Of a stretch of DNA of 64,000 nucleotides, positions 3,210-44,963 are shown one piece after another. Location of the stretch: the NCBI GenBank assembly GCA_039621445.1, contig CP154954.1, positions 26,958,123-27,022,122 on the forward strand, in the 5' to 3' direction. The notes beneath the pieces were generated by a model that saw only the letters and a list, made by a program, of their open reading frames with translations, had not been told where the DNA came from and did not search any database. The stretch comes from Euglena gracilis (taxonomy: Eukaryota). Both the position numbers and the translations under genes were made by a program. Numbering within the stretch: position 1 is the stretch's first letter; every line of letters begins with the position of its first letter.

Positions 3210-3839
3210 GCCCGGCCCCGGCCTCTGGGCGGCTTGCGCTGGACGCGCATGGGCCCCTACCGGCGGTGAACGGCGGAGCCAAGGTGGGTTGGGGTCTGTG
3301 GGGGAGGAAGCTTGGGCCTCGGGCTTGGAGGCGACCCACCCCACGGTCGCCGTGGGCAGGTTGCAAACCAGTCGTCGTGGCCTGGACCGTTCATGGACTG
3401 AACCCCTGTGGGACCCGGGTGCCACGTTGGGCCGGGGGGTGCTGCCATCATCTACGCAGGAGACAACCCAGGCGGCACAACGTGGGACATGCTGCCGCTG
3501 AATTTGCGGAGTGACACCTCCACAGATTTGCGTAAGGCTTCCGTCAGGGTTCACTTGGTGGTGCCAAGCTGCCAAAGGGCAAGGGTACAACTGACCCCCC
3601 CCCCCCCCCCCAAGGTGGGAGATGGGTCGTGGGTTTTCGAGAGAGGGCGGATGGGTATGGGCTGCCGCCTTCGGGGGGTGGGTTGCACCACAATTGCCCA
3701 AACAATTTTCAGGGTCTTTGGCCGATTTCGGGTGGCTTTGGGTTGGTGAGTGGGAAGGTTGCGGGTGACTTCAGTGGGTGACCCCCCCATCAGCAAGCGA
3801 ATATGGTCCAGATGCAGAGGGGAGGGCGGGGCCGGCCAT
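3210..3839 (+). other. Nonconventional intron (C|G...T|G, paired ends)
   Basis: CCGGCCCCG (3212-3220) pairs with CGGGGCCGG (3827-3835), and CCTCTG pairs with CAGAGG. CGG at +4..6 pairs with CCG at -8..-6. Y|R at both junctions. In-frame join ISGPSPDLYI. Confidence 0.85.
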
Positions 3840-4530: not shown

Positions 4531-4648
<118 letters not shown>

Positions 4649-5331
4649 GACCCCGGGTCTAATTTTAGGGTCTGTTGCTGAAAACCACAAGGGGGATCTT
4701 ATTTTGTGTGGGGGGGTTATTTTCGTATTTTTTGGTGAAGATTTCGCCGAAAAAAACCTTCTCGAGGAAGGGTCCGAAAATTAGCCCCAAAAAGATGATT
4801 TTTGGCAATGAGCAAAAAAAATGCCCCCCAAAATGCCAAATTTAGACAGTTTTGTCTCTTGTATTTCCCGCAAATATCCTGGGGGGGGTCTTATTTTGGG
4901 GGGTCTCGTTTTTGGATTTTTTTTTGCTGAAAATCGACAAGGGGGGTCTTTTTGGGGGAGGGAGTTTACCACGTCCGCTAAAAATCCCTACGACACAGGA
5001 TTTTGCGCCGATTTTGCAAACCTCCCCTCCAAACATCCCCTGCCCACAGCCACATTGGCAGAACCATCGAAACGGATGCCCATTTGCCCCAGAAATGGTG
5101 GAGACCTTCTGGCCTTTGGCGCCTTCCGTTTCCGGCAGGATTGACTCTCGCGTTTCCCCCGTCACTTCCCCGCCGGTTTCCACAATTTCCTTAGAGGTCA
5201 TGGGTGTCCATTCCCCGGACCCCGAAGGTGAGGGCCCGGCAGGGTCACCGTGGCCGCGTCGGGGGGTTTTCCGGCCCACCCCCTCCCACGGCTCACCTTG
5301 CCACCGTTCCCGTTGCCGCCCCGCCCCGCAG

Positions 5332-5377
5332 GGGGGAGCCCGGGCAGCGGCATGGTGCGGTACTCCACGACGGGGGA
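5332..5377 (+). CDS. RRM protein short exon carrying RNP1 of RRM2 (GGSPGSGMVRYSTTGE)
   Basis: AG acceptor at 5330-5331 after a pyrimidine-rich tract. Phase matches 3959. GMVRY is an RNP1 variant. Confidence 0.85.
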
Positions 5378-5520
5378 GGCCAGGGCTGGCTGCGACCCTG
5401 GAAACCATGCGGGTGGCAGGGTTGGGCCCGCGGAGCAGTGCCCCCCCCGGGGGGAGGGGGTCACCAAGTGAGCCTCCCCCCAGGTGCCCCCACCAGGCTT
5501 TCCTATTCAGCCCTGGGGGC
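5378..5520 (+). other. Nonconventional intron (CAG at +4..6, CTG at -8..-6), hAT-MITE-like
   Basis: CAGGGCTG (5381-5388) and CAGCCCTG (5508-5515) form a perfect inverted repeat. The join gives EAAAAIQALN, the expected RRM helix-2 spacing. Confidence 0.88.
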
Positions 5521-5698
5521 AGCGGCGGCGGCCATCCAGGCGCTGAACCGCCGGCACCTCCCCAACATGGACCGCCCGCTGGAGGTGAAGTTCGCGGAGA
5601 GCCGCGCGGAGAAAGACCGGCGCATTGCGAGCCGCATGGACGGCGTGCTGGGCAAGGGCGCCTCTGGCAGCGAGGGGTCGGAGTCGGGGTCAGCCGAG
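5521..5698 (+). CDS. RRM protein exon: end of RRM2 (AAAAIQALNRRHLPNMDRPLEVKFAESRAEK...GSAE)
   Basis: ELAV/CELF-like AIQALN...PLEVKFA ending. GTAGG donor at 5699. Confidence 0.9.
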
Positions 5699-5991
5699 GT
5701 AGGCCCATCCCCCCCGCGCCTTCGAAGTGTTCAAAAAGTGTTCAAAGATTCATAAATTTGTTTTTGAACGCGAATGTGGCGGAAGCCGCTGCTCCCTGGC
5801 AATGCCGCCCCAAAATGCAGAAGCCCATGCGTTGGGAGGCCTAAGGGCGGATCTGCTCAGGGCTTTTGAGCTGCTTTCCCCGCACCTGCTGGACTGATTG
5901 GTGGACTGGTTCCTTGTTGGGAAGGAAGTAGTGGCGGGTAGTTGGCGGTGGCGTGGCGGCACATCCTTCAACTGGGGGTGTGGAGTTTGGT

Positions 5992-6605
5992 CCCCCCCCC
6001 CCCCCCCTTGTCCAACGACCGGGCTTGTCTAACGACCACCCCCCCGGTCAGAGACGATCTTTTTGTTTACGATGTTGGTTCGGCCAAAATTGCTAAAAGT
6101 TGGCTAAAAACAGTCAAAAATAGCCCAAAATGGCCTAAAATGTTGCACCTTTGGCCAAGGGATGGCCAAAGGTGCCCAAAAAGTTGCCAAAAATAGCAAA
6201 AATAAGGCAAAAATGGCCAAAAGTAGCCAAAAACAGCCTAAAGTGGCCAAAAATGGGCAAAGGGGGCCAAAGTCTGGCCAACAGTTGCCAAAAGTGGCCA
6301 AAAGCGACCAAACATGGCGAAAAGCGGTCAAAAATGCCTAAAAATTCCCAAAAGTGCCCCAAAAATGTCCAAAAATGGCCAAAAGTGGCCAACCGTAGTC
6401 AAGAAATAGCATAAATGGCCAAAAACAGCCCAAAAAATGGCCATATACCCCTATCTATGGTAAATTTTCCTCCGATTTGGGGTCCACCCCCCTTGTCTAA
6501 CGACCACCCCCCCTGGTCGGAGACGAACATTGGCCATTTTAGCGACCGCCCCCCCCCCCCGGTCGGAGACGAACATTAGTGGTCGTTGGACAAGGGGGGG
6601 GGAGG
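5992..6605. mobile_element. MITE with terminal inverted repeats (TIRs) C(n)TTGTCCAACGACC / GGTCGTTGGACAAG(n) and an internal TGGCCAAAA-type tandem array
   Basis: TIRs read directly. A related ~105-bp element at 25748-25852 is flanked by TA on both sides. Confidence 0.75.
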
Positions 6606-6865
6606 TAGGATGGTTTTGGCCTGGCGCGAAGGGCAGGCCGGTCCTGGACCCCCGCAGGAACCCCCCCCCCAAAATTTCTGGCGCTTCCACCGGGGAAGAT
6701 GAAATTTTTGGTGTATGTTTTGACTGATTTTTCAAAAAAAAAAAGAGTGCAAAACACGAGGGAGGTCCAGATCCCCCTCCTCCCCGCTCACTTGATACCC
6801 TGCCCCCCCCCATGTCCGTAAATAACTTCTGGCGGGGTGCCAACGCAATCCCTGTCCCTGTGCAG

Positions 6866-7021
6866 GATGCGGACCTAAAGCACATGGGTGTGGAGTGGCC
6901 CGGGGCGGGGGACGTCATGGCCCACACCAGCCATGCGGAGCCCGCCAAGAAGCCGCTTGACGCGATGTGCCCGATGGAGCAGTTCTCCCTCCCGCTGGGC
7001 TGTGTGTCGAAGTCGAAGAAG
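6866..7021 (+). CDS. RRM protein exon (DADLKHMGVEWPG...GCVSKSKK)
   Basis: TGCAG acceptor and AAG|GT donor. Phase 0/0 fits both neighbours. GC3-rich codons. Confidence 0.75.
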
Positions 7022-7300
7022 GTCGACCATATGTGGCGCAACTCCCCTAAGATGGGTTCAATAGGCCGCGAATGGCTGAGAAGGTTGCCCATCATTTTTG
7101 TTTCCCATCATGCCTGTCCGCACTGCACAGGTGCAGACAAGCCATCCCCCCCCCCCCCCAATAACACCATAACATCCCCAGTGCCTGAAATACCCCCCCC
7201 TTTGCCTAAGCACCACCGTGGCAGAGAGCAGGAAACAAAAGATTGTTCCAGTAACCGGGCACATCCCCTTTTTTGAAGGCAAGGAAGCTCGTGGCCCAAT

Positions 7301-7810
7301 AACCCCCCCCCCCAAATATAAGAAACCCCTCGCTATAAGAAACCCCCAAATATAAGAAAACCCTCGCTATAAGAAACCCTTTGGCCGATTTTCAGCCGAC
7401 ACCCAAATATAAGAAACCCCCGAATATAAGAAACCCCTAGGCTGTTGGACGCTAATCCATATATAAGAAGCCCCTCGTCTCTTGCGAATCTTTCTTTCAC
7501 CGACATCACTCCCAGATTCCGAAATTACACTCCACCACTTTCTTCTGGACTGATGGAATGATCTGATTCAGCATAAACACGCTCCAGGGCCTCAAAAGCC
7601 ATTAGACATGAAGAAAATCCTACACGCCGTGGTCATATGTAATTAATTACTTGAAGGAACCAAAGGAGGAAAAAGTTCCATTTATAAGAAACCCTTGGGG
7701 CCTGCCTTCGACACCCAAATATAAGAAACCCCCAAATATAAGAAACCCTTTGGGCCGATCGACTGACATCCAAATAAAAGAAACGGGTTTCTTATATTTG
7801 GGGGGGGGTT
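7301..7810. mobile_element. MITE with TIR AAC(n)AAATATAAGAAACC and many TATAAGAAACCC subrepeats; second, inverted copy at 47079-47530
   Basis: TIRs and an alignable unique core are present in both copies. Confidence 0.9.
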
Positions 7811-7866
7811 TAACTTGGCAGGGGGGAAGGTGAAAAAAAGGTCCCCACATTTTGGCACCGTGCCAG

Positions 7867-7964
7867 ACTATTTGGGATGGGTTGACACACACAATGCGGC
7901 GGCGCTGCTTGATGAACCTCTGCAACGATGCGAAGGCCACCCTGCCTCCGTTCGCCCCTCAGGG
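7867..7964 (+). CDS. RRM protein exon (TIWDGLTHTMRRRCLMNLCNDAKATLPPFAPQG)
   Basis: CCAG acceptor and GTATGC donor. Phase 0/2 fits the neighbours. Confidence 0.65.
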
Positions 7965-9681
7965 GTATGCTGCTCTGGAAAAATGTGCCACACGCTCTTC
8001 TTAGTCATTTTTTTTGCATGAGGGAGAGGCTATGAGGGACAGGCGACTGCGATGGTTTTTTTTGCGATTTGCTGCTGTATTTCCCCCCACAATTTTTAAT
8101 GTGCTTTGCTTTGCATTGTTGAATGTTGCTTTGCTTTGTTGCATCATTGCAATTTCCTTTCTTTGTCATAGTATGTGCAAAATTATGATTTGTTGGTTGT
8201 TCATGTTTTGTTCAAATTTTCATTCATTCTTTTATCCAGAATTAGCAAAAATGTAAAAAATAAAATCCCAATTTTAACACATCCTCTTTTTGGTCTTAAA
8301 ATAACAATTTTAAGACCCTGGCAGCGCAAAGTGCTGGCAACTGTGTAAAAAAGTCAGCCTGGGAATAATTTTTTTGGGGGCGGCGTTGTCTTTGGAGGAG
8401 GGTCTGTGATGGGTGGGTGGGGGGGGGGGAAGCGGTTGGTTGTAGGAAGGTATGGTTTGGTGAGTGGTCAAAAAGATGAGAGGAGTTTTTTAAAGACTTT
8501 TTTTTGGCCATTTTAGGGGTCACCCGTTAGGGACCTCATTTCGGCGGTTTGGCGGTTGCACATTCGTTTGGATCAAACCATTGTATAAGGTGTATCCGAC
8601 CGCACCCCCTGGGGGGGGGGGTGACTGACTGGTTTTTGACTGCAGACCCTCCCCAAGGGGGTGGGGTCGCCAAAATGGCCGAAAGTAGCCACCCTGCGAC
8701 GAATGCACTGGGTTTTTTTTTTGATTTTTTGACCAAGATTCTTTGATTTTTGGGCATTTTTGACCCAGTGGCCAGAGTGACCGATCCCCCAGGGAAGGGT
8801 AGGAAGTGGGTGACTGATTTTGAAAAGTGACTGACTGGTTTTTTTGAAAGTGGAAAGCGACCCCCCTCCCCCGGGGGTCAGCAAGCAATGGTATGGCTTG
8901 GATACCGCGCACAATTATGGCGCTGCACATTTATTGGGGGTTTGCACGATCTTTGACGGGGGGGGGGATTTGGCGGGTTCCAATTTTTTCAAAGTTCTAT
9001 AACAATTTATCTGCCGATTTTCAGCATTCTGCTGGCAGATGCCTTTGATGGAAAAATCATTTTCAATGCTCTGTAAAATTTTCTCGTGCCCAAAGTTTCT
9101 CGAACCAAAGGGCCAGCCACGAATGCCAAACATTAACCATTTTATGTGTGTTTTTTCTGAATCAAAAATGCACAAAGTAGAATTACAGTTTTGTGCGGGT
9201 TCCTTGTGCTTGCTGTGGCAGGCCTCAATATAGCATTGTTGTATGATGTTACATCTTGCCTGGTACATCAAAGCCGCAGGGCACCCCCCCCACAGCAAGC
9301 CAGCACATCGAACAATTGCATGACGCCTGGGTAGATGCCCAGGAGAATCATACTTGTTTGGAAAGGGGCCGAAGCAATCCACAAGGCAAAGCCTCCCTCC
9401 TCGCCATCTCGCACCCGGCTGAAAAAGCAAAAGACAGCAGGGACCCCATGTGGTCATCTGATGCTCTGGTCAAGTTTTGCCATTCAATCCCTGGAAACCA
9501 GCTGTGAAACCAGGTCTCTTGATCCCCAACACAATCCCCAGACATGAAAAATTCCAAAACTGGAAGGGGTTGCGAGCTCCCCTCCAACTCTTCTGTTTCG
9601 GCGGCGTTGCTGGGGTCCAAAGGTGCAGCATGTCTCCAAAACAGACCACTTTCCATGTCTCCTCCCTCCCCTCTCTCTCAG

Positions 9682-9809
9682 GGCCAAGGGGTTGCAATAT
9701 CCAGATGGGACAGATGGAGCATTTTACGCCACGTCCCCGACCAAGAGCCTCTCTTCCATCGGTAATAGCAGCGACGGCATTCCGCAGTCCTTCTGGGACA
9801 GCGTGCAAG
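9682..9809 (+). CDS. RRM protein exon (AKGLQYPDGTDGAFYATSPTKSLSSIGNSSDGIPQSFWDSVQ)
   Basis: Strong polypyrimidine tract plus CAG acceptor. AAG|GTGTGG donor. Phase 2/1 fits. Confidence 0.7.
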
Positions 9810-11229
9810 GTGTGGCGGGCGAAATGCACTCTGGGGTGTGAGAAATGCACATTAGGCAATGCACAATTTGTCCTGATTCAAATAGGAGAGAATATTTTTT
9901 ACAGGGTCTTTTTTTTGCGCAGTGAAGTTTGTGTCTGAGATTCGATAGGTGCATATTGTCGGGCACTGCATACCACTGTGTGCAGCAATGGGACGATCAA
10001 GCGTTTCCCCATGCCAATTATAAGTTTTCCGCTTTTTTTTAAGGATTAAAAATGCATAAAAGAACAGGAAAATTAAATGAAAGCATTTTAAACAGCACAG
10101 GCAGATTTTTGATATTGTATTTATTATTTTTATATTGCATTTAGAATTGAATTTTTTTGCTGGACAAGAAGTTTGATTTTTTTAAAGTTCAAATGATTGG
10201 ATGGCTGAGTCTCAACTAACCCACAGGGGCAGGGATATCTGGGAAGCCCTGAGGACCCCAACAACGTGGGGGAGGGGGAGGCTCCTCCTTCCTCGAAACA
10301 GACAAGGATTTAAGAAGTTTTCGGTTCGGGAGCTTGCTGAGGGTGAAGATGCTGGCACAATTTTGTTGAAAAACCCCTGATTTTGTTGAGGCAGTTTCAA
10401 AAAATGTAGTTTCGTGCACTGTTCCAGCATTTTGCATATAGAGAATACCAAAGATTTCAAGGCACGGCTGGATCAATTCTTTGAAATCAATTGTACATGC
10501 CCATTCTTGTTCTGAAATTTTTATGGTAATTCTTATCCCCAAATACGTCATGAAGCTTTAAAGAAATAAAGTAAGACGCATACAAAAAACCCGTTATTTT
10601 TTCAAACAAAACAAGCAAAATTATGTGGTTAAAAAACACGATGAGAATAAAAAAAGCACTACAAGCAAACAGGTGTAATTTTCACTATGAAACAAAGAGG
10701 AGTTTGCACCCAAGGAATCTTGTGAAAACTCTCCTTCTGTCCTCGTTCCCCCCATTTAAAAAAATGGGTCTGATTTTTATATATGCATTTGATGGTGATT
10801 AGGGGAGTCAATCAAGTATTTCAATTTGTTTACAAAACCTATCCCTAGGTGTCTTTTCTTGAAAAAGAAAGCAAAAAAATCCCTCTCCCAACCCCCCCCC
10901 CCAGAGTGGGTGGGACCCCCCACTCCCTGGTCTTTAATTAGAACACAAATGTGAGTGTCAGAGTTCAGCCAAAGAAGCTCAGAATTGAGAGAAACAATCG
11001 CTTTTCTGACCCCCCCCCCCCCCCGGGAGAGGGGGCGGCTGCCTGGCTTTTTTTTTTGCCTTCAGCGGGACTGCCTGGGCTTTCCCCAAACCCCTCAATT
11101 CCTCAATTCCCAGGGGGGGGGGGTCGGTCAATCATTGCAAAGGCTCGACCCTGGGCCCCCAAGCCAAACCCTGTCTTAGTGACGGTCTTCGTGACCGGCG
11201 GCCTCCACCCACCCCCAACCCCCTCCCAG

Positions 11230-11295
11230 GGATGCTGCGCCAGGACGACGTCTTCGAACACGAGTCCCTCAGCTGTCCGCCGGCGGGGGTCGCCC
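11230..11295 (+). CDS. RRM protein exon (GMLRQDDVFEHESLSCPPAGVA)
   Basis: CCCTCCCAG acceptor. Phase 1 entry matches 9809. The 3' boundary is inferred from intron pairing. Confidence 0.65.
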
Positions 11296-12868
11296 GTGCA
11301 GCGTTCCTTTTTTCCGGCGCGAGGCATTTTTGGCGCGAGCCGATGCCTCGAAGTCGAGTACGTGTCAACAGGATGCGGCTGGCCATAAGATGGCATTGGA
11401 GGGTGATGCCCCGAGCATTTTTCGCCCCTCGGCAATATCTTTCTAGGAGGGTTTTCGCACATTTTTGGGGATTTTAGGGATTGCATTTTTTTTGAGTTCA
11501 AACATATACAATGTTGCGCCGTATTTTCTGTCCTATTCTGAACAGTCCCCACAGCTTTCCAGCTCCCTGTGTTTTTAGAAGAGTTTCACTGCCCGCAACT
11601 TTGGGGATTTGTGTTTGCAGGGGTTTGGTGCTCCTCCCCCAGCTTTTGTGGATTTTGCACATTTTCTCACTTTTCGCACGTTTCCTTTCAAGCATTCATC
11701 ACCTTCCAACCCCTCTCCTGATTCTAGGTTACGAGTCAGAGTCAGAGTGGATACTATGGGTTTTTTTTTTAACAGTGGGCCCTGGGTGGGTTGCCCCCCC
11801 CCCCCCTCAGGGGTATCTGGGGGTTGGCCAAGTGGGTGACCTGGGATCAGGGCAGAACGGGAAACGACCTTGCGGCCAGGGTGGTGGGTGGGGGGGGACC
11901 CCCCCACCCCCTGCATGGTGTGATGGGGGGGGGGTCGAGGTCCCCCCTAAACCCCCCCAAAACCCCATTTTTTCACACCTTCCAAAACATCAACATTTTC
12001 TCGAAATTTTTATTTTGAGCGGTTTTTGATGCAAAAAAAAAGCCATTGAAAATCAAAAAAAAATTCCAAGAGAAAAAATATCAGTAAAATTGGATTGTGC
12101 CAAATTTTTGTCCATTTTTTTGAGCTTTGTTTTTTTTTTACCCCCCTCCTAAAAAGTACCAATTTTTAACCTGAAAATTTTGAGATTTTTTGGTGAAAAA
12201 GATGTGGTTTACCATCAAAAAATCATGTATTTTGGGTCCGTTTTTCAAAAAAATTTTCAAAAATTTACCCCGGCCAACATCCCCGTTGGTCGAAATTGGT
12301 GAAAATGCTGTGGTGGGTGGGTGGGGGTCGACCCCCCCCACCAGGCCTTCCCGTTCTGCCCTGTCTGGGATGGGGGTTTACCCTATGCCATGTTATGCTA
12401 TGCTATGGTGTGCTGTGCTATGCTGTGCTATGCCACAGCATGCTATGCTGTGCTGTGCTATGCCATGCAATGCCATGCCATGCTATGCTAGCTATGCTAT
12501 GCTATGCTATGCTATGCTATGCTATGCTATGCTATGCTATGCTATGCTATGCTATGCTATGCTATACCATGCAGTGCCATGCTGTGTTATGCTATGCCAT
12601 GCAATGCCATACTATGCTGTGCTATGCTATGCCATGCAATGCCATGCTATGCTGTACTATGCTATGCTATGCTGTGCTGTGCTATGCCATGCTATGCTGT
12701 ACTATGCTATGCTGTGCTGTGCTATGCTATGCTATGCCATGCTATGCCATGCCATGCTATGCTAGGTATGCTATGCTATGCCACTGAGCCCCCCCCCCCC
12801 ACAGGTGGGTCAGGTGGGTGGGTGAGCAGGTGCCAGCCCCCTCCGCATCCTATGAAACGTCTGGTGGA
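11296..12868 (+). other. Candidate intermediate intron (GT 5' end, non-AG 3' end, CAG/CTG pairing)
   Basis: GTGCAGCGTT...GAAACGTCTGGTGGA|. The +4..6 / -8..-6 rule predicts 12869 as the exon start, which is the frame required. Confidence 0.55.
12384..12783. repeat. Degenerate (ATGCT)n pentanucleotide microsatellite
   Basis: Direct reading. Confidence 0.97.
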
Positions 12869-13025
12869 TATGGGGCCACACCTCGTCCCTGACGTGGCCG
12901 TCCTGCCAACCCTCTTCCCCCTCGGCCCCTTCGGGAAAGGAAGCCTGCCCCCAAGACGAGGGCCTGACCGTGGAGCACTTCGCCAGCGCGCTGGACCTGT
13001 CCCTGGAGGGCCCAGGGGGCAACAG
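12869..13025 (+). CDS. RRM protein exon (LWGHTSSLTW...EACPQDEGLTVEHFASALDLSLEGPGGN)
   Basis: GC3-rich codons and a CAG|GTGTGT donor. The 5' boundary is tentative. Confidence 0.6.
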
Positions 13026-17723: not shown

Positions 17724-18103
17724 CAGGGTTTGATATGAGGAGGGCGTACATGGTTTAGGTGGGGGGGTGTCCCCCCCCCCTCCTGGCCCGCAGGAGGGGG
17801 TCCGGACCCCCCCCACTTGCCAGGGGGGTCCGGACAGACCCTGGGGGGGGGACCCAGGACCCCCCGCAAAAAGGGTCGATTTTTTCCTCCGGCGCTTTGT
17901 GCCGAAATTTTTTTTGCATTTTTGGCAAATTTTTGCCGAAAAAGTGCCCAAAATGGCACTTTTGGTCGTTTTGGGGGTCAAAATTTTTCGGTCACCCGGA
18001 CCACGCCACTGTTTAGGTGGGGGGGTGTCCCTCCCGCCCCCCCCCCCCTCCTGGCCTGCAGGGGGGGTCCGGACACCCCCACCTGTCCTTATATCAAACC
18101 CTG
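17724..18103. mobile_element. hAT-type MITE with a perfect 8-bp TSD
   Basis: TIRs CAGGGTTTGATAT / ATATCAAACCCTG. TSD GTCCAGCC at 17716-17723 and 18104-18111. Confidence 0.92.
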
Positions 18104-19103: not shown

Positions 19104-19284
19104 GTATACACACATACATACGTACATATACATACATACATACATACATACATACATACATACATACATACATACATACATACATACATACATACATACA
19201 TACATACATACATACATACATACATACATACATACATACATACATACATACATACATACATACATACATACATACATACATACA

Positions 19285-19315
<31 letters not shown>
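19104..19315. repeat. (TACA)n microsatellite
   Basis: Direct reading. Confidence 0.98.
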
Positions 19316-19902: not shown

Positions 19903-20775
19903 ATATATATTCTCTATTTTCCTTTTTTTGAGATTTTCCCCAAAGAAAGATGCTCTATCTCCCAGAGAGGCATGGGTACGAACAATAGTGTGAACAATTG
20001 TTTGCACCCCAGGCGGTTTTCCGATTGGGGCATTTCCCCTCCTCGAGTTTGGCTCCTCTAATGCTGGCTTCCACCGCTTATTTGTGGCCTTGGGGATCTT
20101 TGTTTTTGGGTTGTTTACGTTATTGTGCTTGGTCCCTTTAACCTGTAACCTTTAACCTGCCTGGGGGAGGGTGTGTTGCCACGCGCGCACGCGCGCGCAC
20201 ACACACACACACACTTGGGGGCTGGGGCGGTTTACTGTGCTCACTTTCTTCCCAAGGCCGAGGGAGTGCCGCAGCCATTTCACTGCGCCTGTGCAGCCGC
20301 CCAGCCCACCCATACCTCACATCATACTCCATACCCTGCCCCGGGGCTTTCTTGGCTCCAAGCGTACTAAACCCCCCAAGTCCAACTGCACAAATGATGA
20401 CTGAAACAAAGTTGGGCCCAGCAGGGCAACACGGCCCGAAAATGAAGGCGATGTGCCGGATCTTTGGCTGCAAGTGCTGGCACCCCCCCCTGTGTTTTTT
20501 GGTTCTCGGCCGCAGCCAGGGTATTAAGTGAGCATTGGTCTTGTAAGGGAGGGGGGGTCCGGACCACCCCTCCCCCCTCTAGGCTTGGAGGGGGGGGGTC
20601 TGCGGCAGGGGATTTTTTCAAGCCGCACCCCATCCCCTGGGGGTCCAGCTAGGCAGCACCTTTTTTCGATGGTTCAGGGGCTCCCTGAACCAAAAAAAAT
20701 CTTCCCGGTGCTTTGCGCTGGAAAACTTATGTTTTTGTCATCTGTTTTTGTTGATTTGGTGCCGTAAACCACAAA

Positions 20776-21375
20776 CATACTTGCAGTTAGTGCGACCGGA
20801 AAAATTGTTTCCGTGCGCCGCGACCACCGCGGAAAATTTTTTTGTAACCGGCAGCGCCGCGGCAAAAAATTTTCTGTGCGCTGCGAATGCCGCGGCACTG
20901 GTTTATGTGTGCGCCGCGACCGCCGCGGAAACTTTTGAAGTTTGTGCCGCGACCACTGTGGCAATTGTCTTTTAAATTGTGTCCCACATATACTTCCTTT
21001 CGACCCCATCCCTCGCCTGGCCTTTTTGATACTTTCTCGACCATGGCCGAGAAAGGTATTTGGCGGCAGGGTCACTTTTGTGCAAGTGTTCTTGTTTGTT
21101 TTCACAGATCAGCGTTCACCATCTTCAATCTAATTTTCCACCAAAAATGTTGGGTCTTGTGTTGCTGCCAATACGTTCTTGAGCTCCGGGCAGAAAATTT
21201 TTTGTGCCGCAACCACCGCGGAAAAAAATTCCCCTTGCGCCGCGACCACCGCGGCAATAAATTTTGCTTGTGCCGCGACAGCCGCGGCAAAAATCTTTCT
21301 GTGCGCCGCGACCACCGCAGAAAATTTTTTTTTGCGCCGCGGCATGAGCGCCGCGGCGCACTAACTACAAGTATG
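20776..21375. mobile_element. hAT-type MITE with a perfect 8-bp TSD and GTGCGCCGCGACCACCGCGG subterminal repeats
   Basis: TIRs CATACTTGCAGTTAGTGCG / CGCACTAACTACAAGTATG (one mismatch). TSD ACCACAAA at 20768-20775 and 21376-21383. Confidence 0.92.
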
Positions 21376-24300
21376 ACCACAAATCTGGGCACTTTTTGCA
21401 GCCCCGAAGCTCAAATAATTTCCTTTGTGCCCCCCCTCCCCTCCCACTATTTCATTTTATACCCTGTCCACAGCTGGCCAGCTGGACGCGACCCCCCCCC
21501 CCAACCTCCACTCCAATGGTTTGCGGTGGATCCCCCAGCCACACATATGCCCACCATAGCTCTATTTTAGGTTTTGCATTCCCCTTCCCCCCCCCCCAGG
21601 GGGCTGCTGCAGCCAACCCCATTTTGGTCCAGCCCTGATGCGGCACCCCCCCCCCCCGCGGGTGGGTTGCTGCAAGTCCAGCTAGCCAGCCCCTTTTTTT
21701 ACTGGCTCCAAGCCGGAAAATTTGTGGCGGAACGTGCCGAAATTATTTAAACAGGTGTTCAAAATGGCCAAAATGGTGTTTTGGGTGCTTTTGGGCGTGT
21801 TTTTTTGGGGTTGAGAAGCTTATTTTTTTTCCAACGCTGCGTTTTTGCGGGCCATTTTTGGGGCAGTTGTCTGATTTCAGCCCAGAGCCCAGCCCGGCTC
21901 AGGTTCAACCCCCTCCCGGGAGGGGGGGGGCTGGCCGGCCTAATAGGAGCGCCGGCCTAGTAGGAGCGCACCCCCCAGCAACCCAACCCCAAAGGGGAAG
22001 CCAGCAGAGAGGGACCCACCCGCGAGGCAGTGGACCGCCCAAACCAACCCCGGACAGGGCATGGAGCACAGGTACCAGTATGTAAGGAACTACTCCGCCC
22101 TAAGGCCGAGACTTGGTGACCCGGGTTTACCTAAGCCGCGGGACCGTGAGGCCACATTGGAATTTTTCAAGTCATGGCGTTGAGCCTGCGCCATGCAGCC
22201 CCCACACAGAAAAGTGGGAAGAGGGCAGGAGGCAAGAGCAGCACTGGGGCGCAAGGGTGTAGACCCACCCACGGGAACCACACCAACCACACAAGGTGAG
22301 TGTATGTCCCTACAGCGCTGGAATTACACCAGAGTTACTCACCCGGCCAGGGGGAGCAACAAAAGAGGACTGGTGTAAGGGGTCCCTGGCCACTCACCAC
22401 GCAGCAAACTGGGCCAGAAGCGAAGTCAGCGCCGGCCATAAACAGACAAGAAGCCTCAGTGCAACTAAGGGGGGGGGGTTGGCCAGCCCAAATTTCTCGC
22501 CCTTGCCCAGCAACCCCCCTGGGTTCTTAAAGAAATGCACTCCCCCATATTATCCCACGGGGGGCCCAGGGGTGCCACCACCCCCCGCCCTGCCCCTAGA
22601 GGGATGTCCTGAGGAATCCCCTGACCTCGGGCCCAGCCCCTCCGCACTGTGGGCTCAGCCCGATCCGTTTGAGACCCAAATGGCATCCCAACCTCCCCCC
22701 TGCGCTGCCTGCGCGGCGCCGGCTGAGCGGCGCTGTCACACGTGCCGCCCGGCCACGGCTTTCCTGGCCCCGGCGTCGCTCATGTCGGACGGGACACCAT
22801 TCCCGTGTCACCATCCCCCCACAGGGAAAGCCAAGCCAGTTAGCAGCCGTCTTCCAACCTTGGGCCACCCTCCCCTATCGACAAAATTTTAACTCCTGTC
22901 CACTTGGCAGGGTGGTGACAGGCTGTTTCGCTTTCCGAGGTGCGACAATGGGTGGGCAAATGGGCCCAGGATGGGCTACCCAGCTAAACTGTTGGGTCGA
23001 AAAAATTGTGTGGGGGTTTGGGTTCTTTTTTTTTTTGCTTTTTTTTTGTTCCTGACGTCTAATGTGAGGTCGGGCCCAGTACCAACCGGGGGGAGACAGC
23101 AGCCCAATTTTTTAGGCCACTGAGCTGACCTCTGGGGGGAGGCTCGTTCAGCGACCCCCTGCACCTGGTTGTGGGCCCCATCTCAGCTTCGCCCCTACCG
23201 CACCTCTACCTCTGTCCGATGCCAACCACAGTTTACCGCCGGCGACCCATGCTGCAGTGGCCGGCCAAACAGCCCTCACCTCCCTGACGAGAGGCATTAC
23301 CTCAAGTGGTATTTCTGTGCCACAGATCTTCTTCCAACCCGACCGGCCATCTGCGAAGACTTTTTTCTTTTGTGTGAGGTGCATTATTTGTGTGTGCATG
23401 CTCAACGTCCGCTTTAATTTTGCCTTGATGCCATAGTTTGTCCTCTCCCTGTTCAGCCAGGCAACCGCCCCCCAACACAGAGGGGTGAGGCGGCCCGCTC
23501 TGTGGCCCTGCCATTTATCTCCCTCGGCCTTACCTCCCGTCTCCCCATCGGCATACCTGGTACCTTCCGACCTACCCGCCCCGCTGTCCCCCACCTGGCA
23601 CCGCGTTTGGTGGGCTTCTTTTCCACAGGAGCCCTGCTGTGGAGATTGGGGCCGTTGCCATTCGTAGGCCGCTGGCTCTCCATCCCCAGAACTCCCCTGC
23701 CCTGCACCCCTTCCCCCCAGAAACCTGCATGCCTCCCCCGGCGCTTGGACCCCCTTCTCCTTACATGCAAACTTGGCCCCCCTAAGGTTGGCCCCCTGGC
23801 CTTACCTTCAATCATCGGGCCAAGCGCCCGGGGGGGGGGGTACTTTCTCTTGGTACAGGTTCTCCCATCCCTCCACTTTCACTGCATTCGCAATTGCTCA
23901 CGCTGCAGTGGGTGACAGACCATAGATGGACGACGAATTATGTGCAGGGAGGTCGACGTTGGGTTCATGGGGAGGGGGAGTTGTCGGGATACCCGTTTAG
24001 TCCTGGGCCATAGAATGTGTATCACCAGGGGAAAAAGGATAGTCACCGAGCAGATGCAGGACCAGCCCAACTGTGACCATTCATAATTTTACGCAAAAAC
24101 TTTCAAGAACTTTTAAGTTTTTTTAGGGGGTTTTGAAAGTTTTTGGGTTTTTTTAAGGCATTCTGAGAATTTTAAGGATTATTAAGGTGTCTATCTTCCT
24201 TCCAAGGCGCGGCGCGGGGGTCGTTGTCAGTGGGGGTGTGTCTGTGTGTTTGTTGGCATTTGGGGCGGGAACACGGGTGAGAAACCTTAACCCTAAACCC

Positions 24301-25747
24301 AACCGACAACCAACCCACCAACACCAGTGACCTGCCTGCCACACCTGCCACACCCCCTGCGGGTCAGGGAGGTACAGGATGTAGCGGCTGCTGCAGGGTG
24401 GCGAGGTGGGTGGCGGTGCGCGGCGAGGACGGGGAGGGGATCCGTCTAAATAATTTATATGTGACAGAAAGGAAAGAAAGTTGTGCGCTTTGCGCACAGG
24501 CGCACACCGACACCAACCAAAAAGGCTTTAGTGATTTTTTGCCGAACCCGCCCCGGGGGGGGGGTAGGGGGTCCGGGCCAAAAACCAGTCAGTCACTCCA
24601 AAAAAACCAGTCACCCACCCCCCGGGGGGGGGGGGAGGGTCGACCAGTGCTTAAAAAATTGTCTGACCCTGACCACGCCGGCCGCAGCGCAGCGCAGCCA
24701 CGCCGTGAGGGAGAGAGGAGAGAACCCCCTGCTGGGTTCGTCTTAAGTTGTCATTTTTTTGGTCTTCAAATGTTCACCAAATGTTCACCAAAGGTTCTTT
24801 TTTGGAGTGTTTACGATTTGTGCACTGTTTCACAATGGTGGTTTTTTTTCTCCAAAAAAATACTGTTCTATGGGTCGGTGTGCGCATTTGTGCAAATGGT
24901 TCACAACATTTATCCCTTGTTTTACACTCCCAATAATTCAAGTCCCCTCCCTCATCTATATTTCCCATATTTGTCGGCGCCGGAAAAATTTTTGGCCTTT
25001 TTTGCATGTTTTTGGTCAAATTTCTTTTGGATTCCAGAGTGGCCGACCCCCCCCCCCCCTGGGGGGTAGTGACTGACTGGTTTCCCGAAAAAAAAGTGAC
25101 TGGCTGGTTTTTCAAAAAGTGGAGTGACCCCCCCCCCCGGGGGTCGGTAAAAAATTGTATGGTCAGGGTTTCCGCCGTACCGCCTGCCGCGCCGCGCAGC
25201 ACGTACCGCTGGTTCAGATTGGGATCTATCTTCTGAATGATTCTTTTGAGTGAGGGGAATTGGTAGTAAAGGAAAGCGATTGCACCATTTGTGCAAATGC
25301 GCACACTGACCAAAAAAAACGTTGTAGAAAATAGAGTGACCCGAAGGGAGGGGATTGCCGAGGAGTATTCAACTTCACTTGATTGCACGCATGCGTTGGA
25401 CTGTTTGCGCATTTGAGTTCATCGACACACAATTGCTCCGTCGTATTACGTCTGCTATGTGTTCCCATCGGTTTTCTTACCCCTTGCCCCAAAAGCAGCC
25501 TCATCGCCTGTTCACACTCTCACAGCAGTTGCCTGTTTTTCAAAGTTTAAACATAATCCAAAACAGGGTTCTTTAAATGCAATATGTATGAGCGTTGTTA
25601 TTCCATTTTCCCTACACCACAAACGACAGTCACATACACATTTTACCAGGTCAGTCGTTACTTACAAATTCAAATGTCGATGTGCGCATTTGCGCACATT
25701 GACATTTAAATTTTACGTGATTATTTCACATCACCCAAAATCACGTA

Positions 25748-25944: not shown

Positions 25945-28900
25945 TCCACATTCCAATTAGAACCAGGTTCTAATTCATAGTGATATGTTTGCCCAACCCT
26001 TTGTACAACTCAAAATAATAAGGGTCCCCCCACACTCCCCAAATGTCTCCATTTTTCTTAAAAGTGACAATTTTTAACGTTTTTCAGACCCTCCAAAATA
26101 AATTGGACGGCATACAGTTCCTCACACCATTTGGACAGGCATCCAAATCCGTCACTTTCAACAGGTCATGCAGGGTCAAAAACCTAAAATCCGCACCCGT
26201 CGATTCTGGCGGGCGCAACCACCAGGGGTAGTTTTCGTACACTCCAGGCTATACCCCCGTATCGCTGGTGAGGGCGCAAAAACACAACTTGTGGGAGAAC
26301 AGACAACACACATTTGGTGGAACGCTCCAGTCGCGATTTCAGTTAGGATCGTGTATTCAAACCTTCCGTGAATTAGAAACTTCCTTCTAATTCTCGTACA
26401 TACCAAGAAATAATTTCGGTGGAGGCAATCAGCGGATTCGGGGTTTTGCAAAAAATATCTATTTGCGCTATTGCGCACATCGACAAAGAAAAAACCCTTA
26501 AGTGCGAGATGTGCTGCCTACGAGGAGGTCTGACCCCTTCCTGTCCTGCCAACCTCTGGCTTCTCGTGTCAGTCCCCTGCCAGCTTCCCAGCCTCACCCC
26601 ACACGGCGTCCCCAACCCCCGTCCAAATGGTCACAGAGCCAAAGGTGCCCTGGGGCCGCTTGACCCAAAGGCTTGTGGTGGGCCTGCTGCGCTTGCCTGC
26701 GTGTAACCCACTGTTGGGTGACGGTTTGCCAAACCAGTGCCATCCCCAGGATGCTGGTCCTTCCGGCTTGACCAGAGGGGGTCGGGGAAGCTGCCGCAGA
26801 CATGGGTTGGGCGGTGAATTACTTTTGGAAGTATTGTGGCGCCCCCAAAAATGAGAAGTGCTTCAATCGCGTTTCCTACCCTGGATTATTCTTTAAATCC
26901 AGGGTTGGGGTCATAGATTCGCTCAACACCTTTGCGACCCTACCCCCCAGGGGTTTTGAGAGTGGGTGGCTGGGGCCACTGGACCCCACCCCCTTGTGAT
27001 GGGGTGCGCCATGGTTTGGTCTTTGGCCCACCAGAATTTCAAAGGGTTTCGGCTGATTTTGGGTGGGTTTTGGGTGGGTGGATGGGTGGGGGTTTCGAGA
27101 GAGAAAGTGGGTGGGTGGGCATGCATGCGGGAAGCAGTGCCCCCCCCCCCCAGGGTCATAGGTGAATCTATGGTGGGGGTCCAGCCAGCTTGCCCTTGGC
27201 CTGGAAAGAGACTTGGCTGCTGCTTCCACAGCTGGCCGGTGGACGGTGCCAAAACGACCATTGGCACAATCCCCTCAAATTCTGTATGTTCAAGTAATTT
27301 TGCGGGGGGGGAAGGTCGAAAAGATCCGTCCAAATTATTTTTTGCCCCCTTCACAAGGAATACCATGAAAAAAATGGTCTTTTTGGAAAACCAGGAGGCG
27401 TTAATCACAAAAATCATTCCAAAATGCTTCACCGTATGAAGCATCAAATCATGTTACAATTATTAATGAAAACAGCATTTGACAACAATTGCTTTAGGAA
27501 AAGTGGTCAATCGTTCCATAAATGGTTTTGGGAACTGCCAATTCGCTGCCCAGTGGGCAGGGGCCAAAAAAACGGCCCACCAATTTTCCAAGAGGCAAAG
27601 TTATTTGGAGGGGGGCGTTAGTACCTGCGTGGCAAAGCACTCTGAGACCCCCCAAGCCGAATTCAGCCTGAAGGGGATGGGGCATCCAGCCAGCCAGTCC
27701 CCTTTTCAGCCAGCAGCTCCCAGCTGCAAAACCAATTTTTAGGGAAGGTGAAAGGGGTCAAATTTGTCGGGAAAGTGCTGCTTTTTGTGCAGCACATCTA
27801 ATCAGCTTAACTTGTTTTGGCAAAAAAAAAGATTCTGAGCCAGCTGGGATTGAGTTCCTTTGCTAGGTTTCGGGAACCAGCCAGGTCCAGCCAGCTGTTC
27901 GAGCCAGAATGGAGGGGGATCAGATTGTTCTGCGAACCACGGTCCCCAACCTGAGCATGGTTTTGAAGAACCGTGCTTGGGGGGGGGGCTGATCGAGGAG
28001 TATTTTTATTTTCCCTCGATTAAAGTTGGCTGTGCCTTTTTGGAGTATACACGGGTATTTCGAAGATTTTTGGCTTTCTTCCCCCACCTGGTTTCGGCTG
28101 TCTGCCAACACCTGGAAGGGGGGGGGTATAAAACACTGACTTAAGGCTGTTTAGTGCCGAATGCAGGGTGTGACAGACCAGTTATTTTTTTCCCAACCCC
28201 GAGATTTGGCTGGCCTGTCGAATTTGGGGGGAGACAACGTCAAATTGCCCCCCCCCCCCCACACATATTTACGGCCGTAGACAGATAATCTGGGAGTCCA
28301 GCCCGCCAGAATGGAGGACGTTTCAGAGTTTCTTTTGAGCAGAATCCTGAACTTACAGGAGGTTGATTGCTGCTTATATGCAGCCACCAATTGCATTGCT
28401 TGCTTGCTGTTCCCATTGAACATATGCAACAGCATGGCAACAGCATATGCAGGACTGTACGGGAATCCCTGCAACCCTATGGGTGGTGGGTGCGGAGGTC
28501 AGACCCCCCCCCCACCCCCATCCTGGTGGGTGGGGGGTCTGACCTCTCCCACCAGGCCTTCCCGTATTTCCAATTTTTAAGTCAAAAGTTTCGGCGCCTT
28601 CGGAACCGAAGGAGTTTTCTTTCCGCAGGTGCTGTGGTGGGTGGGGTGTCGACTCCACCCACCTCCTTGGTGCGGGGGGGGGGGGGTCGACCCCTCACAA
28701 GGCCTTCCCATACAGCCTTGAGCATCTCTCCTCTTTTTGATATACATTGAATATGGAACGCATGGCGCCGTTGTGAGTGGGCTGGACATCTTGGCAAATT
28801 GCTGCTTGCCAGTTGTGGTCGCAATTTATTTGCTCCCGTCCATTTAGACGTTTGGGCACAGGGCCGGTCTTTCAGGAACCAGATTCTTTTTTTGTTAAAG

Positions 28901-29861: not shown

Positions 29862-30755
29862 GCATTTGAATAGAAAATCCCTAACGCGTTGTTTTTCTAT
29901 AAAACATGTACTTTTTATGTCCCCTCCTCTTTTCATTCGAAAAATTTTATGCCCCAAGGTTTTTAGGTGGTCTATTTCGCACTTAAGTTTTTTACCTTTT
30001 TTTTGCACAATTGCTCAAACGAATTGAGATTTTCTGCATTTCAATCCTCGTCGAAAAAACCCCTGTTTGGGTCTTTTCACCTGGTGGCACATTTTTGGCA
30101 ATGTGCAGAAATGATGGTTTGCAACTCGAGTGTCACTTAAAACATGTGAAGAACTCAAAAAGGGCCTTATTGACAAACTCAGCTCTTTTTTTTTTGTCTG
30201 ACACTGGAGCCAGAGATTCCCACAAATTCGTGCCACAAATAATCACGAATAATCACGAACCAGCACCATCATCATTATCAGAGTCATCCTCTCACCTGTT
30301 TCTTCCTGATGAAAATTTTATGGGATTGGAGAACAGGTGGTTGGTGTTCGGCAAGATGGCATGCTGAATGGGGCATCATCAATATTTTTTTTTGGCATTG
30401 TTGGCACTCTTTTTTTTGGCTTATTGTCGCAATTTTGTGCCCTTTCCATCCAAATTTGTAAATTTTGGCCAGTTGTCAATCATTTTCTACCATTATTGGG
30501 CCACTATTGGCCATTTCGGGCATTTTGAGTCAACTTTGGAATATAGGTATCTTTTTTGTTTTGTTCTGCAGCCCTCTTTGAGCTTGACCCAGGGACCGAG
30601 ACCCCTTCAGAGATGAGGTTTTTTGCAAAATTCAGCAATTTTTGAACAAATTCCTGCAAAATTCCACAAAATACTGCAAAACTGTATTTTTTTTATATAA
30701 AATGTGTATTCAGGAAACGTGAAAAACCAGACGCTTTTTTTGGCAGCACGAAAAA

Positions 30756-31460
30756 TCACAGATAATCAGGGTCGTCAGCGCGAATTTGTGGGATTCCCTG
30801 CTGGAGCCCTCGGAGCGTCCTCAAAGCCTTGTGAAAACAGTCCCCCATTCCTGTTTTCCTAACTGACAAATATCCAACCAAAGGAATTTCAAAAAAATCC
30901 TTTTTTGTTTTCACCTGCACAACCATTTGGAATAGGAGATTGGCATCAGGGAAGAAAATCCATGGTGTACCGGTTTGATAAATTGAGGTCGGCAGGAGGG
31001 GAGAGTGGCAGGCATTTTCGGAGTGACAGAGCGACCGAGAGGTGAGGGCACCAGTTTCAGTGCTGACGACCGACATGGGGGAAGTTTAGATATTCCCTGG
31101 TTTCTTGTCAGGCTGTAAGACATCGAAATCTTGCTCCTGTCTGACGGCTGGAGGAAAGATGTGTAACAAGGTTTAAAATGCCTCTCAGGGGAACATGCTA
31201 GATGACACCGGTCATGCATCAATTTCTGAAAAGCAAAAGATCACGCAGTCACAAATTTCCCTCCTCTGAAAAACCCTGAAAGACTTTTTTGAAACTGAAA
31301 GGGTTTAAACTGTAATCCCCTGGGTCGAAGTGCCATCTGCTGATGGCATCGCTTTTCATGCTTTGGGAGGGGGCCCAGTGAACTTGGAGGGTGATGCCCA
31401 TTTCCATACACCACTTGAGAAAGGGTCTGATGAGTTTGTTCAGGTGGGGTCCAAAAAAAT
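30756..31460 (-). pseudogene. Degenerate RNase H region of a divergent DIRS-like element
   Basis: LNKLIRPFLKWCMEMGITLQVHWAPSQSMKSDAISRWHFDPGDYSL aligns with FNSMLRPFFKWCMEHNVNLQVKWVPSKECLADPISRWEMDRGDYSL of the 43250 ORF. The left boundary is approximate. Confidence 0.8.
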
Positions 31461-32278: not shown

Positions 32279-32615
32279 CAGGCTTCTGCTTAAGGGATTG
32301 CAGTACCCCAGGGGGGGGGGGGGGCTGGACTGCAGCTTGTCCAAATTTGGCTAGTGGGCCCGGGGGGGGGGTCTGCTAGCAAGGCTAGCTAGTGGAAAAA
32401 AAATTGGGATTTTTTGGAACAAAATCAGCCAAAAACTTCAAAAAAACTCATTTCCACCTCGGCGCACAGCGCCGGAGGAAATTTTTTTTCCAGTTGGGCG
32501 GACCTTGGGACACCCCCCCCCGGGGGGGGAGGGGGGTCTAGCTAGTCCATTTTTTCCAGTGTCTTGCCGATTGGCTAGCCAGTACCCTCCCCCCGTGTCC
32601 TTAAGCAAAAGCCTG
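32279..32615. mobile_element. hAT-type MITE with GCTAG subrepeats
   Basis: TIRs CAGGCTTCTGCTTAAGG / CCTTAAGCAAAAGCCTG. TSD ACACAGAC / TCACAGAC matches at 7/8. Confidence 0.88.
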
Positions 32616-34689
32616 TCACAGACTGACAATTTTTTAGACGCATACACGAGTTTTGGGACACATACTGCATCCAGGGATTTTTTTAAGTTTGGACCCCCGG
32701 GGGGGAGGTAGGGTGGGTGGGTCCGGCCGAGCCCCCCCCGGGGGGGGGTCCCCCCGGAGGGGGGTGGGATATAATTTTCGGCGCCGCAGGCGCCGAAAAA
32801 AATTCTATTTTTAGCACTTTTCGCGATTTTCGGCCATTTTTTGTGGGTCCGCGGACCTGCCTCCCCACCCGGGTGGCGCCAGGGGGTGGGTGGGTGGGGG
32901 GGTTCCCCCCCACCCACCCACCCTAAGGACAGATTTACTGCATCCCAGTAAATCTGTCCTTAAACCAACTCCAAAATGCCAAAAAAAAAACAAAACGCCA
33001 AAATGCCATTATTTTTTTTAATTTCAGTTGCCCAAATGTGTGAGCTAAGTCCATAGTCATTTGTTAAGGGTGAAGTGGACAATCTCAGATGTTGCCCCCC
33101 CCCCCCCCCCGCCTTTCATCCAATAATTGCCTGGGGGGCCCTCCTCTGGGGACGAAACATAACCATTTATGTTCATCCCTTCTCTTCGGGTATCTTGTAA
33201 TGATGACTCTCTTTACGAGGGAAAGCTTTTTACGAGGCATTTTTCAACAACAAAAAAAACGATTATTAAAGTGCAAAGAAAGAGGACAAGCAAAGAGGGA
33301 TCTGGTTGTTTCAAGAGTGTGGAATGGTCAGGAAATGATGATAAGCAACCATTATTTTTAAGCACACATTCTTAAACTTTTTAAGTTTTTTTGACACGTT
33401 TTAAGGTTTGTTAAGGTTTTTAGGATTTTTAAGGTTCTATTTTTCAAGGGTGGTCCAAGGGCGTTCTGTCAGAGAATGGGGTGCAATCAAAAAAGAGTTG
33501 AAGCACCCATTTGTTGAATTTGGGCGGAAAGATAACGTTCCAGCGATGCCACACATCATTTTTCCCTGCAGAGCTGGCTATTTTGTTTTTTGGGCCATTT
33601 GCCGAGATTTTGATTTTGCTCAGGTGGAGATAAATTTTGCCAGACTGATTTTTTTGAGGTTTGTTTAAAGTGGTTTTAAGGTTTTTCTAAGGCGCCTCAA
33701 ACAATAATGCCTGGAAATGAGGTCTGAAGGTAATTGAAAAGTGAATCCATGAATGATGTCATCGGTCGGTGCCCATGTCCTCTCCGGCTGTAACGATGGT
33801 TGAAGGTCAGATTTCGTTTGTCCAGGGGGGCTGACCAAGGGGGGACTGGGGGGGGGGGGGGCGACAGCAAGCGGGGGTGTTGGCACGAAGAGGCAGGACT
33901 GTAGACGCATAGGTGGTGACCCCCAACCCCCACCCTGGTAGGTCTGACCACCCCTCCCCCACCACGCCTTCCTGTAACAGCCCTGTGGAGGGGGGGGGAG
34001 ACGGTCAGTGTGTGTTGCTGGGTGACTTCGAGGTATTGTGGGTGCATCAAGGAGGATTGCTGTTGCCCCCCCCTCTCCGCTGGCAGGACCGGACCCCATC
34101 CCCCCCCCCCCGCCATTCCTGTCAGCGGCCCCCACCGCCCCAACCACTGTCCGCCGTGTCCGCGCTCCCGTGTGGCGCGTGAAGAGCGTTGCCAGCCACC
34201 CTCATCGCCGCTGTGTGCACAGTGTGGCACGAACTCGGGTGAGGGTGGGAGGGGGTTAGGTTGGGAGGGGGTGGCTGTGGGATGGGGATGCCATTTCCGG
34301 TGGGACGCTGGGGGTTTAGGGTGGGGTTGCTAAGCTCTTCTCTATTCCGAGTGAAGCTGACCACCATGCCCCTGCGATGAAAACCGCGGATTATAATCAC
34401 CATGACCCTGGCCCCGTTCCCAAATTTTTTTTTCAGCTACAAGGAATTGGATCCCAACTTTCTGGATCACCTCCGTTTGAGCCCCAACTCCCTTCCAGGC
34501 CCCAGTTCTTTAGCCGACAAGGGGCCCAAACTGGGTGGATTAGCCAACCCCCCCCCCCCGTTTTGACTGTGCTATTTCTCCAGGTGAAATTTTTCGATCA
34601 AAAACTTTTGACCGAAAATTGATTTTAAAACTGACTTTCCAATAATATCTCGAGAAAACGGTCATTATTTCTGAAAGTGTCTGCCAGAC

Positions 34690-44362: not shown

Positions 44363-44388
44363 TTTTCCCAGCTCCTTTTTTACTGGTT

Positions 44389-44958: not shown

Positions 44959-44963
44959 ACTCT

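Follow-up and report, generated by a model that had tools for sequence, protein, structure and literature searches.

A nonconventional intron in an RRM-protein gene of Euglena gracilis and its probable origin from a CAGG-ended miniature transposon

The DNA analysed here, called the window throughout, is a stretch of 64,000 nucleotides of Euglena gracilis (assembly GCA_039621445.1, contig CP154954.1, positions 26,958,123 to 27,022,122 of the forward strand), and it carries part of a gene for an RRM protein. We describe one intron of this gene, at 5378-5520, whose 135-bp core (5381-5515, plus strand) is a putative decayed MITE (miniature inverted-repeat transposable element) with relatives elsewhere in the window. 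The gene structure was obtained by mapping the 585-aa E. gracilis protein eukprot:EG_transcript_3382 onto the window and combining the result with RNA joints; exon sequence 5522-5695 is 100% identical to that protein. The upstream exon (5331-5377, plus strand) holds the codons for GGSPGSGMVRYSTTG and the first two bases of a Glu codon; it matches the protein exactly, and RNA contigs and reads end at its border and join across it. The downstream exon (5521-5696, plus strand) continues with AAAAIQALNRRHLPNMDRPLEVKFAE and the second half of the RRM, as the RNA joint and the protein match both indicate. Protein mapping and RNA joints define 12 introns in the portion of the gene covered by the window, half of them GT-AG and half nonconventional.

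RNA contigs and raw reads were mapped to positions 4649-12100. The joint from 5377 to 5521, the very junction named in the original prediction, was seen in one contig of set X1 (depth 205.7) and one of set X2 (154.6), as well as in raw RNA-Seq data, with 13 reads at 12 start places in run X21 and 4 reads in run X24. It skips 143 nt with ends GG..GC, has zero sliding freedom and leaves an mRNA in which GGGGA is joined to AGC. The removed segment reads GGC-CAG...CTG-GGGGC on the plus strand, followed by A as the first exon base; neither GT/GC-AG borders nor the GT-AG/GY-AG sites of spliceosomal introners are found there. What is removed at 5378-5520 is a true nonconventional intron of the RRM-protein gene, lacking GT-AG ends.

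Its borders fit the code defined by knock-ins in E. gracilis, 5'-N3CDG-/-CH'GN5-6 followed directly by a purine (R) in the exon (PMC12501133). In the knock-ins the donor spacer is strict at 3 nt, with neither +1 nor -1 tolerated, the acceptor spacer is optimal at 5 nt with 6 tolerated, and function depends on a purine as the first exon base (PMC12501133). The intron has exactly these 3-nt and 5-nt spacers and a purine first in the exon, so that the predicted sum of 3+5=8 agrees with experimental values. Like the euglenid nonconventional introns already described (Milanowski 2014/2016; Gao 2024; Nomura 2025), it has CAG at +4 to +6 and CTG at -8 to -6 in place of GT-AG; G at +7, C at -9, ends that may pair and RNA-confirmed removal extend the likeness. 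The published E. gracilis consensus at +3 to +7 is CCAGG (Gao 2024, PMC11170887).

The core is bounded by CAGGGCTG at 5381-5388 and CAGCCCTG at 5508-5515. Outside it stand two 8-mers that we consider a putative target-site duplication (TSD): GGGGAGGC at 5373-5380 on the left, whose first 5 nt are exonic and last 3 intronic, and GGGGCAGC at 5516-5523 on the right, whose first 5 nt are intronic and last 3 exonic, both read on the plus strand. All four segments lie exactly where they had been placed beforehand. The perfect inverted repeat also predicted there is present, though it measures 9 bp rather than 8 (left arm CCAGGGCTG at 5380-5388, plus strand; partner arm at 5508-5516). A short inverted repeat is unremarkable by itself, with 35 inverted pairs of at least 7 nt within the surrounding 501 bases. 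Its significance is its position: it begins at +4 and finishes at -6 of an intron defined by RNA.

The flanking 8-mers share 6 of their 8 bases, which is weak evidence when taken by itself: with all unequal offsets within 15 nt as the null, the probability of at least 6 identities is 0.025, and the earlier caution about coincidence between G-rich flanks was well placed. The two mismatches fall at intron position -1 and exon position +1. Since the change in the exon, GAG/GAA, is silent and leaves the required purine in place, both could be neutral. Each flank does differ from the spliced 8-mer by one base, as had been remarked, but this is an arithmetic consequence of the 6/8 match.

The transcripts hold a second form as well. 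A joint from 5378 to 5522, placeable up to 2 nt further, gives an mRNA that reads GGGGAGGC and is identical to the left flanking 8-mer; it is supported by contigs of depths 72.9 and 44.4, by 7 reads of run X21 and by 2 reads of run X24. These contig depths are the same as those of a variant, 5369 G>C, so the second form belongs to another allele or to a close paralogue. It carries 5369C, differs in the sequence that is attached upstream at 5342 (9 loose-end reads, X21) and has about half the depth of the main form. The 5369C copy may have G at 5521, may be spliced 1-3 nt further on or may be intron-less; the RNA fits each of these.

When the intron was compared with the window by BLAST, its last 29 nt up to CTG (5487-5515, plus strand) resembled the right end of an intact 516-bp MITE at 11848-12363. 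The two agree at 25 of 29 positions (12335-12363), the best score among 2356 other CAG-anchored 29-mers on both strands, the runner-up reaching 19. A second copy of the family, 271 bp long at 28450-28720, agrees at 23 of 29 (28692-28720), and a further right terminus, ending in CACGCCTTCCTGTAACAGCCCTG, lies at 33956-33985, with an uncertain left end for which 33894 is the candidate. Across the window the right termini at 12363, 28720 and 33985 share 18-25 of 29 ungapped positions with that of the intron. In all four aligned termini the homology halts at CTG and the flanking bases are unrelated, which is the mark of a mobile-element terminus. On the other side, beginning at the terminal CAGG, the left 70 nt of the intron align in colinear order with the left end of 28450-28720. 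Their score of 14.5 is reached by 14 of 5112 tiles: six overlap the intron, one is 28450-28720 itself and seven are other G/C-run repeats.

Both intact copies carry terminal inverted repeats (TIRs) and short flanking repeats of their own. At 11848-12363 the TIR CAGGGCAGAACGGGAA is perfect (16/16) and the flanks CCTGGGAT and TCTGGGAT match at 7 of 8 positions; at 28450-28720 the TIR matches at 13/16 and the flanks AGCATATG and AGCATCTC at 6 of 8. In each case the flanks match in the 8-nt register only. With homology to 28450-28720 at both ends and to 11848-12363 at the right end, core 5381-5515 is probably a short, decayed member of this CAGG-ended (CAGGRCTG) family. A pattern search for the family matched only its two source sequences and has no evidential value; the family terminus gave 0 hits in a metagenome scan. 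Separately, a motif made of a C-run, a G-run and then AGGGGGTC occurs at more than 15 places in the window (for example 5441-5462, 32504-32535, 24610-24635 and 39345-39367). Often situated within MITE-like elements, it seems to serve as a common subterminal component in the repeats of this genome.

Duplications of 8 bp accompany CAGG-ended elements in the window beyond this family. A scan for every CAG...CTG pair separated by 50-4000 nt whose inverted repeats match at 12 or more of 16 positions returned 215 pairs; flanking 8-mers with 7 or 8 identities were found in 4 of them and in none of 212 controls whose flanks were shifted outward by 12 nt. Both MITEs cited in the original prediction are real: one is CAGGG-ended, 380 bp long and of another family (17724-18103; flanks GTCCAGCC and GTCCAGCC, 8/8), the other CAGGC-ended and 337 bp long (32279-32615; flanks ACACAGAC and TCACAGAC, 7/8). 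A CAGGG-ended element of 950 bp at 20517-21466 has flanks GCCGCAGC and TCCACAGC that match at 6/8. Together with the two family copies this makes five CAGG-ended elements, with flank identities of 8/8, 7/8, 7/8, 6/8 and 6/8, that peak only in the 8-nt register, a hAT feature, and collapse at 7 or 9 nt. One of the 4 high-scoring pairs, the element at 42022-42352 (331 bp, 20-bp perfect inverted ends), has an apparent 8/8 duplication, CCTCGAGG, that we dropped as an artefact because a longer inverted repeat takes in its flanks and the 8-mer itself is palindromic.

The other nonconventional introns of the gene offer a wider comparison. We label the six by letter, the intron at 5378-5520 (CAG..CTG) being F. 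Introns A (1268-1646, CAG..CTG), B (1668-2142, CAC..GTG) and D (3210-3839, CGG..CCG) rest on protein colinearity and the motif, H (6990-7906, CGC..GCG) on an RNA joint, and K (11296-12952, plus strand) on an RNA loose end at 11295; only F, H and, at its left border, K are covered by reads. Intron K begins with GT but has CC at its other end, and it fits the nonconventional code, reading GTG-CAG..CTG-CCCCC before an A as the first exon base. Flank identities, out of 8, are 3 for A, 3 for B, 3 for D, 6 for F, 2 for H and 5 for K, and their sum lies above the local null (P = 0.02).

Two of these introns house repeats. Intron K contains the intact MITE at 11848-12363 along with a directly adjoining (CTATG)80 array at 12383-12781. 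Intron H contains a nested repeat of about 440 nt that is 89% identical to 47106-47528 on the opposite strand (region 47078-47532) and has very high RNA contig depth. A screen by third-position GC content and open reading frames (ORFs), meant to enlarge the intron sample, gave no convincing further coding segments beyond 13.4 kb. Nine other RNA joints checked among those listed, including 4684-4894, 4818-4908, 6109-6361, 7341-7624, 8519-8615 and 8633-8823, do not fit N3-CAG/CTG-N5; they look like repeat copy variants rather than splicing.

Several results weigh against a transposon origin. The flanks of the intron are G-rich and match at only 6 of 8 positions. The initial 16 nt of the intron agree at 11/16 with its own right end and at 10/16 with 11848-12363, a weak TIR; with 9 perfect bp and 11/16 in all, the TIR is shorter and poorer than those of the intact copies. 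The left 70 nt do not rise above background against the left part of 11848-12363, where 369 of 2556 tiles score as high, and a global alignment of the intron with that element gives a z of about 2.8 over shuffles, one of which scored higher. The terminal stem is absent from the predicted minimum-energy fold, and the intron folds no better than its shuffles (z = -0.13). Another CAGG family (30211-30800 and 36784-37768, CAGGGTTTCCCAC.../CAGRGAWTCCCAC..., one of the two being situated in a (TG)n tract) has 7-nt flanking repeats, so 8 is not universal. The transposase search reported below was negative. Lastly, the general claim that such MITEs generate introns, which the window neither establishes nor contradicts, gains no support from the five other introns: once intron F, which was ascertained beforehand, is set aside, the summed flank excess is not significant (P = 0.13), and of the 12 intron termini a single one stands out by its match to a repeat end, the rest doing best at 17-21 of 29.

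From such results one could argue that the intron has another origin and that the resemblance is secondary or due to chance, the flanks being G-rich and a MITE fragment having landed in, or been converted into, an existing intron. The modest flank probability, the left half that is not significantly like 11848-12363, the G-run and C-run motifs scattered throughout the window and the five of six nonconventional introns that have no repeat-end match all speak for this. We nevertheless find it unlikely. The homologous block ends exactly at the splice-motif CTG (-8 to -6), 5 nt from the exon and in register with three other termini; a secondary insertion would need to hit that exact position, and the left end also aligns with 28450-28720 from its first base.

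Direct repeats at an intron could also stem from repair of a staggered double-strand break that captured filler DNA, with no transposase involved. A precedent is intron 4 of gapC in Euglena agilis ACOI 323, the single intron known as a new gain, which has eight-nucleotide direct repeats at its junction that the authors attributed to double-strand-break repair (PMC4770533). Here, however, the inserted DNA belongs to a family with TIRs, and other copies outside exons have their own 8-bp duplications in exact register with the terminus, a signature of transposition and not of filler capture. Break repair is for us the most improbable of the explanations considered.

We therefore propose the following course of events. 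A MITE of the CAGG-terminated, 8-bp-duplicating family would have inserted into the exon and duplicated the 8-bp target GGGGAGGC, and the insertion would have been spliceable at once. In the right copy, intron position -1 would later have mutated, as would, in this allele, exon position +1 (GAG to GAA). Splicing would cut 3 nt before CAG and 5 nt after CTG, the spacers known from the published knock-ins. As these 3+5 nt plus the element equal the element plus one duplication, removal would restore the pre-insertion exon and its frame without a scar. We judge it likely that core 5381-5515 began in this way and that its 3+5 removal is scarless.

The same cut geometry would leave a hairpin with a 2-nt 3' overhang, possibly hinting at a nuclease. 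This lends some credit to a different reading of the spacers, namely that they reflect the enzyme: an RNase III-like or symmetric splicing endonuclease would make a 2-nt staggered cut across the CAG/CTG helix, the preference for a pyrimidine before and a purine after the cut would be its cleavage specificity, and the sum of 8 would be coincidental. The purine that is functionally required at the exon start (PMC12501133) suits such an enzyme. On the other hand, an enzymatic ruler leaves unexplained both the 8-nt repeat at the newest known intron and the exactly 8-bp duplications of CAGG-ended MITEs in the same genome. Coincidence is thus a minority view in our estimation, although not a negligible one. 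The two ideas are compatible in any case, for a pre-existing ruler would favour the retention of elements that make 8-bp duplications.

Published junction statistics bear on both. Among 55 introns, purines stand at intron +1 in 51 and at exon +1 in all 55, pyrimidines at exon -1 in 49 and at intron -1 in 49, A at exon +2 in 43 and C at exon +3 in 30 (PMC4770533). With an 8-bp duplication, position -1 of the exon and of the intron descend from one target base, and the same holds for the two positions +1 and the two positions +3, so mirrored preferences are predicted. Those seen (pyrimidine then purine at both junctions; C at intron +3 and exon +3) agree with the transposon reading, as do the eight-nucleotide repeats of the gapC intron, although the preferences would also be explicable by a symmetric endonuclease. 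Junction repeats make 69.1% of the nonconventional introns of E. agilis 'slidable' (PMC12501133); the chance expectation for any 1-nt junction repeat is, as a rough figure, about 44% at equal base use.

As to the superfamily, the elements share with hAT MITEs in general the 8-bp duplications, short TIRs beginning with CAG, non-coding interiors and lengths of 0.1-1 kb. The combination of CAGGG ends with 8-bp duplications is the classical one of hAT (Ac/hobo-type) elements; P-type ends likewise begin with CA. The name hAT MITE given to the core in the original prediction fared unevenly: the relation to a MITE family with 8-bp-flanked copies is supported, the assignment to hAT is not. Pfam found no transposase, cognate or other, in the 10 longest of 51 ORFs of at least 170 aa, the only hit being a reverse transcriptase. 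The Hermes-type target nTnnnnAn (PMC10368747) is not evident either: of four well-defined duplications, a small sample, one has T at position 2 and two have A at position 7.

Merlin elements with 8-bp duplications do occur in E. gracilis, but Merlin ends begin with GG across all described families (PMC8101967). Here the ends begin with CAGG, the CA/TG bases being inverted rather than duplicated, so membership in Merlin fails. On balance the hAT label is plausible for these MITEs. That the MITE origin is right while the superfamily is P-like or another maker of 8-bp duplications is a serious possibility, to which we give somewhat less than an even chance.

The reverse-transcriptase hit (44392-45018, minus strand) lies in a part of the window, 42100-55700, that is rich in retroelements; it also contains long ORFs with no Pfam hits and kilobase-scale inverted repeats at about 44.8-48.6 kb and 49.6-53.3 kb. 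Elsewhere the window contains long microsatellites, (AAC)39 at 4533-4648 and (ATAC)53 at 19106-19314, and a degenerate TGGCCAAAAG array at 6163-6435. RNA contig depth over 5.9-6.6 kb is 10-fold above that of exons, a sign that transcripts, or else contaminating DNA, are rich in these repeats.

A transposon origin of euglenid nonconventional introns had been cited beforehand as a proposal made in general terms. This is correct, and more is in print than was supposed. In 2014 a MITE origin was proposed from inverted repeats, at a time when, according to that paper, transposable elements were not known in euglenids (PMC3935182); a 2024 review terms the CAG/CTG ends TIRs and the junction repeats TSD-like (PMC11282704); and the gapC repeats described above are a third case (PMC4770533). 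In the passages and sections of papers covered by our literature search, none connects hAT, an 8-bp target duplication or the sum 3+5=8 with these introns. What appears to be new here is that an individual intron can be tied, by its sequence, to a concrete repeat family with intact copies bearing 8-bp duplications.

The closest parallels are the introners of Micromonas and Aureococcus (Huff 2016, as described in PMC11282704 and PMC7789003) and of Amoebophrya (PMC7789003), which are likewise DNA transposons that are non-autonomous and have inverted repeats. The target duplication they make lies across the border between exon and intron, and splicing removes the element with one copy of the repeat, as we propose for 5378-5520. 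Introners are removed by the spliceosome, and those of Amoebophrya have 3-5-nt repeats and 8-20-nt inverted repeats (PMC7789003). Unlike them, the present intron is subject to the non-spliceosomal euglenid removal, with cuts measured from the CAG and CTG of the element, and has an 8-bp repeat. Maize Ds, a hAT element whose removal uses spliceosomal sites and is generally imprecise, is reportedly spliced as a de novo intron (Giroux 1994, cited in PMC3935182). The likeness is that of a non-autonomous hAT-type insertion in an exon that is removed from the transcript, but here the removal is exact and independent of GT-AG.

The origin of euglenid nonconventional introns has been a question since the 1990s, and a 2025 genome-scale study still calls it unclear. 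The present window connects an RNA-verified intron, a repeat family with intact, 8-bp-duplicated copies and the measured 3-nt and 5-nt spacers. Whether most such introns are insertions of CAGG-ended, 8-bp-duplicating (hAT-like) MITEs, scarless through the 3+5 ruler when a purine occupies target position 6, seems to us close to an open bet, tilted slightly towards no. If the link were true genome-wide, the generator of these introns would be identified, and the harmlessness of exon insertions from the start would be explained. It would also account for nonconventional introns making up 72% in E. agilis, for the abundant junction repeats and for the mirrored junction preferences. A second, non-spliceosomal splicing system would then have these MITE families as its 'introners', and 'transposon plus target duplication equals intron' would have a second case, independent of the spliceosome.

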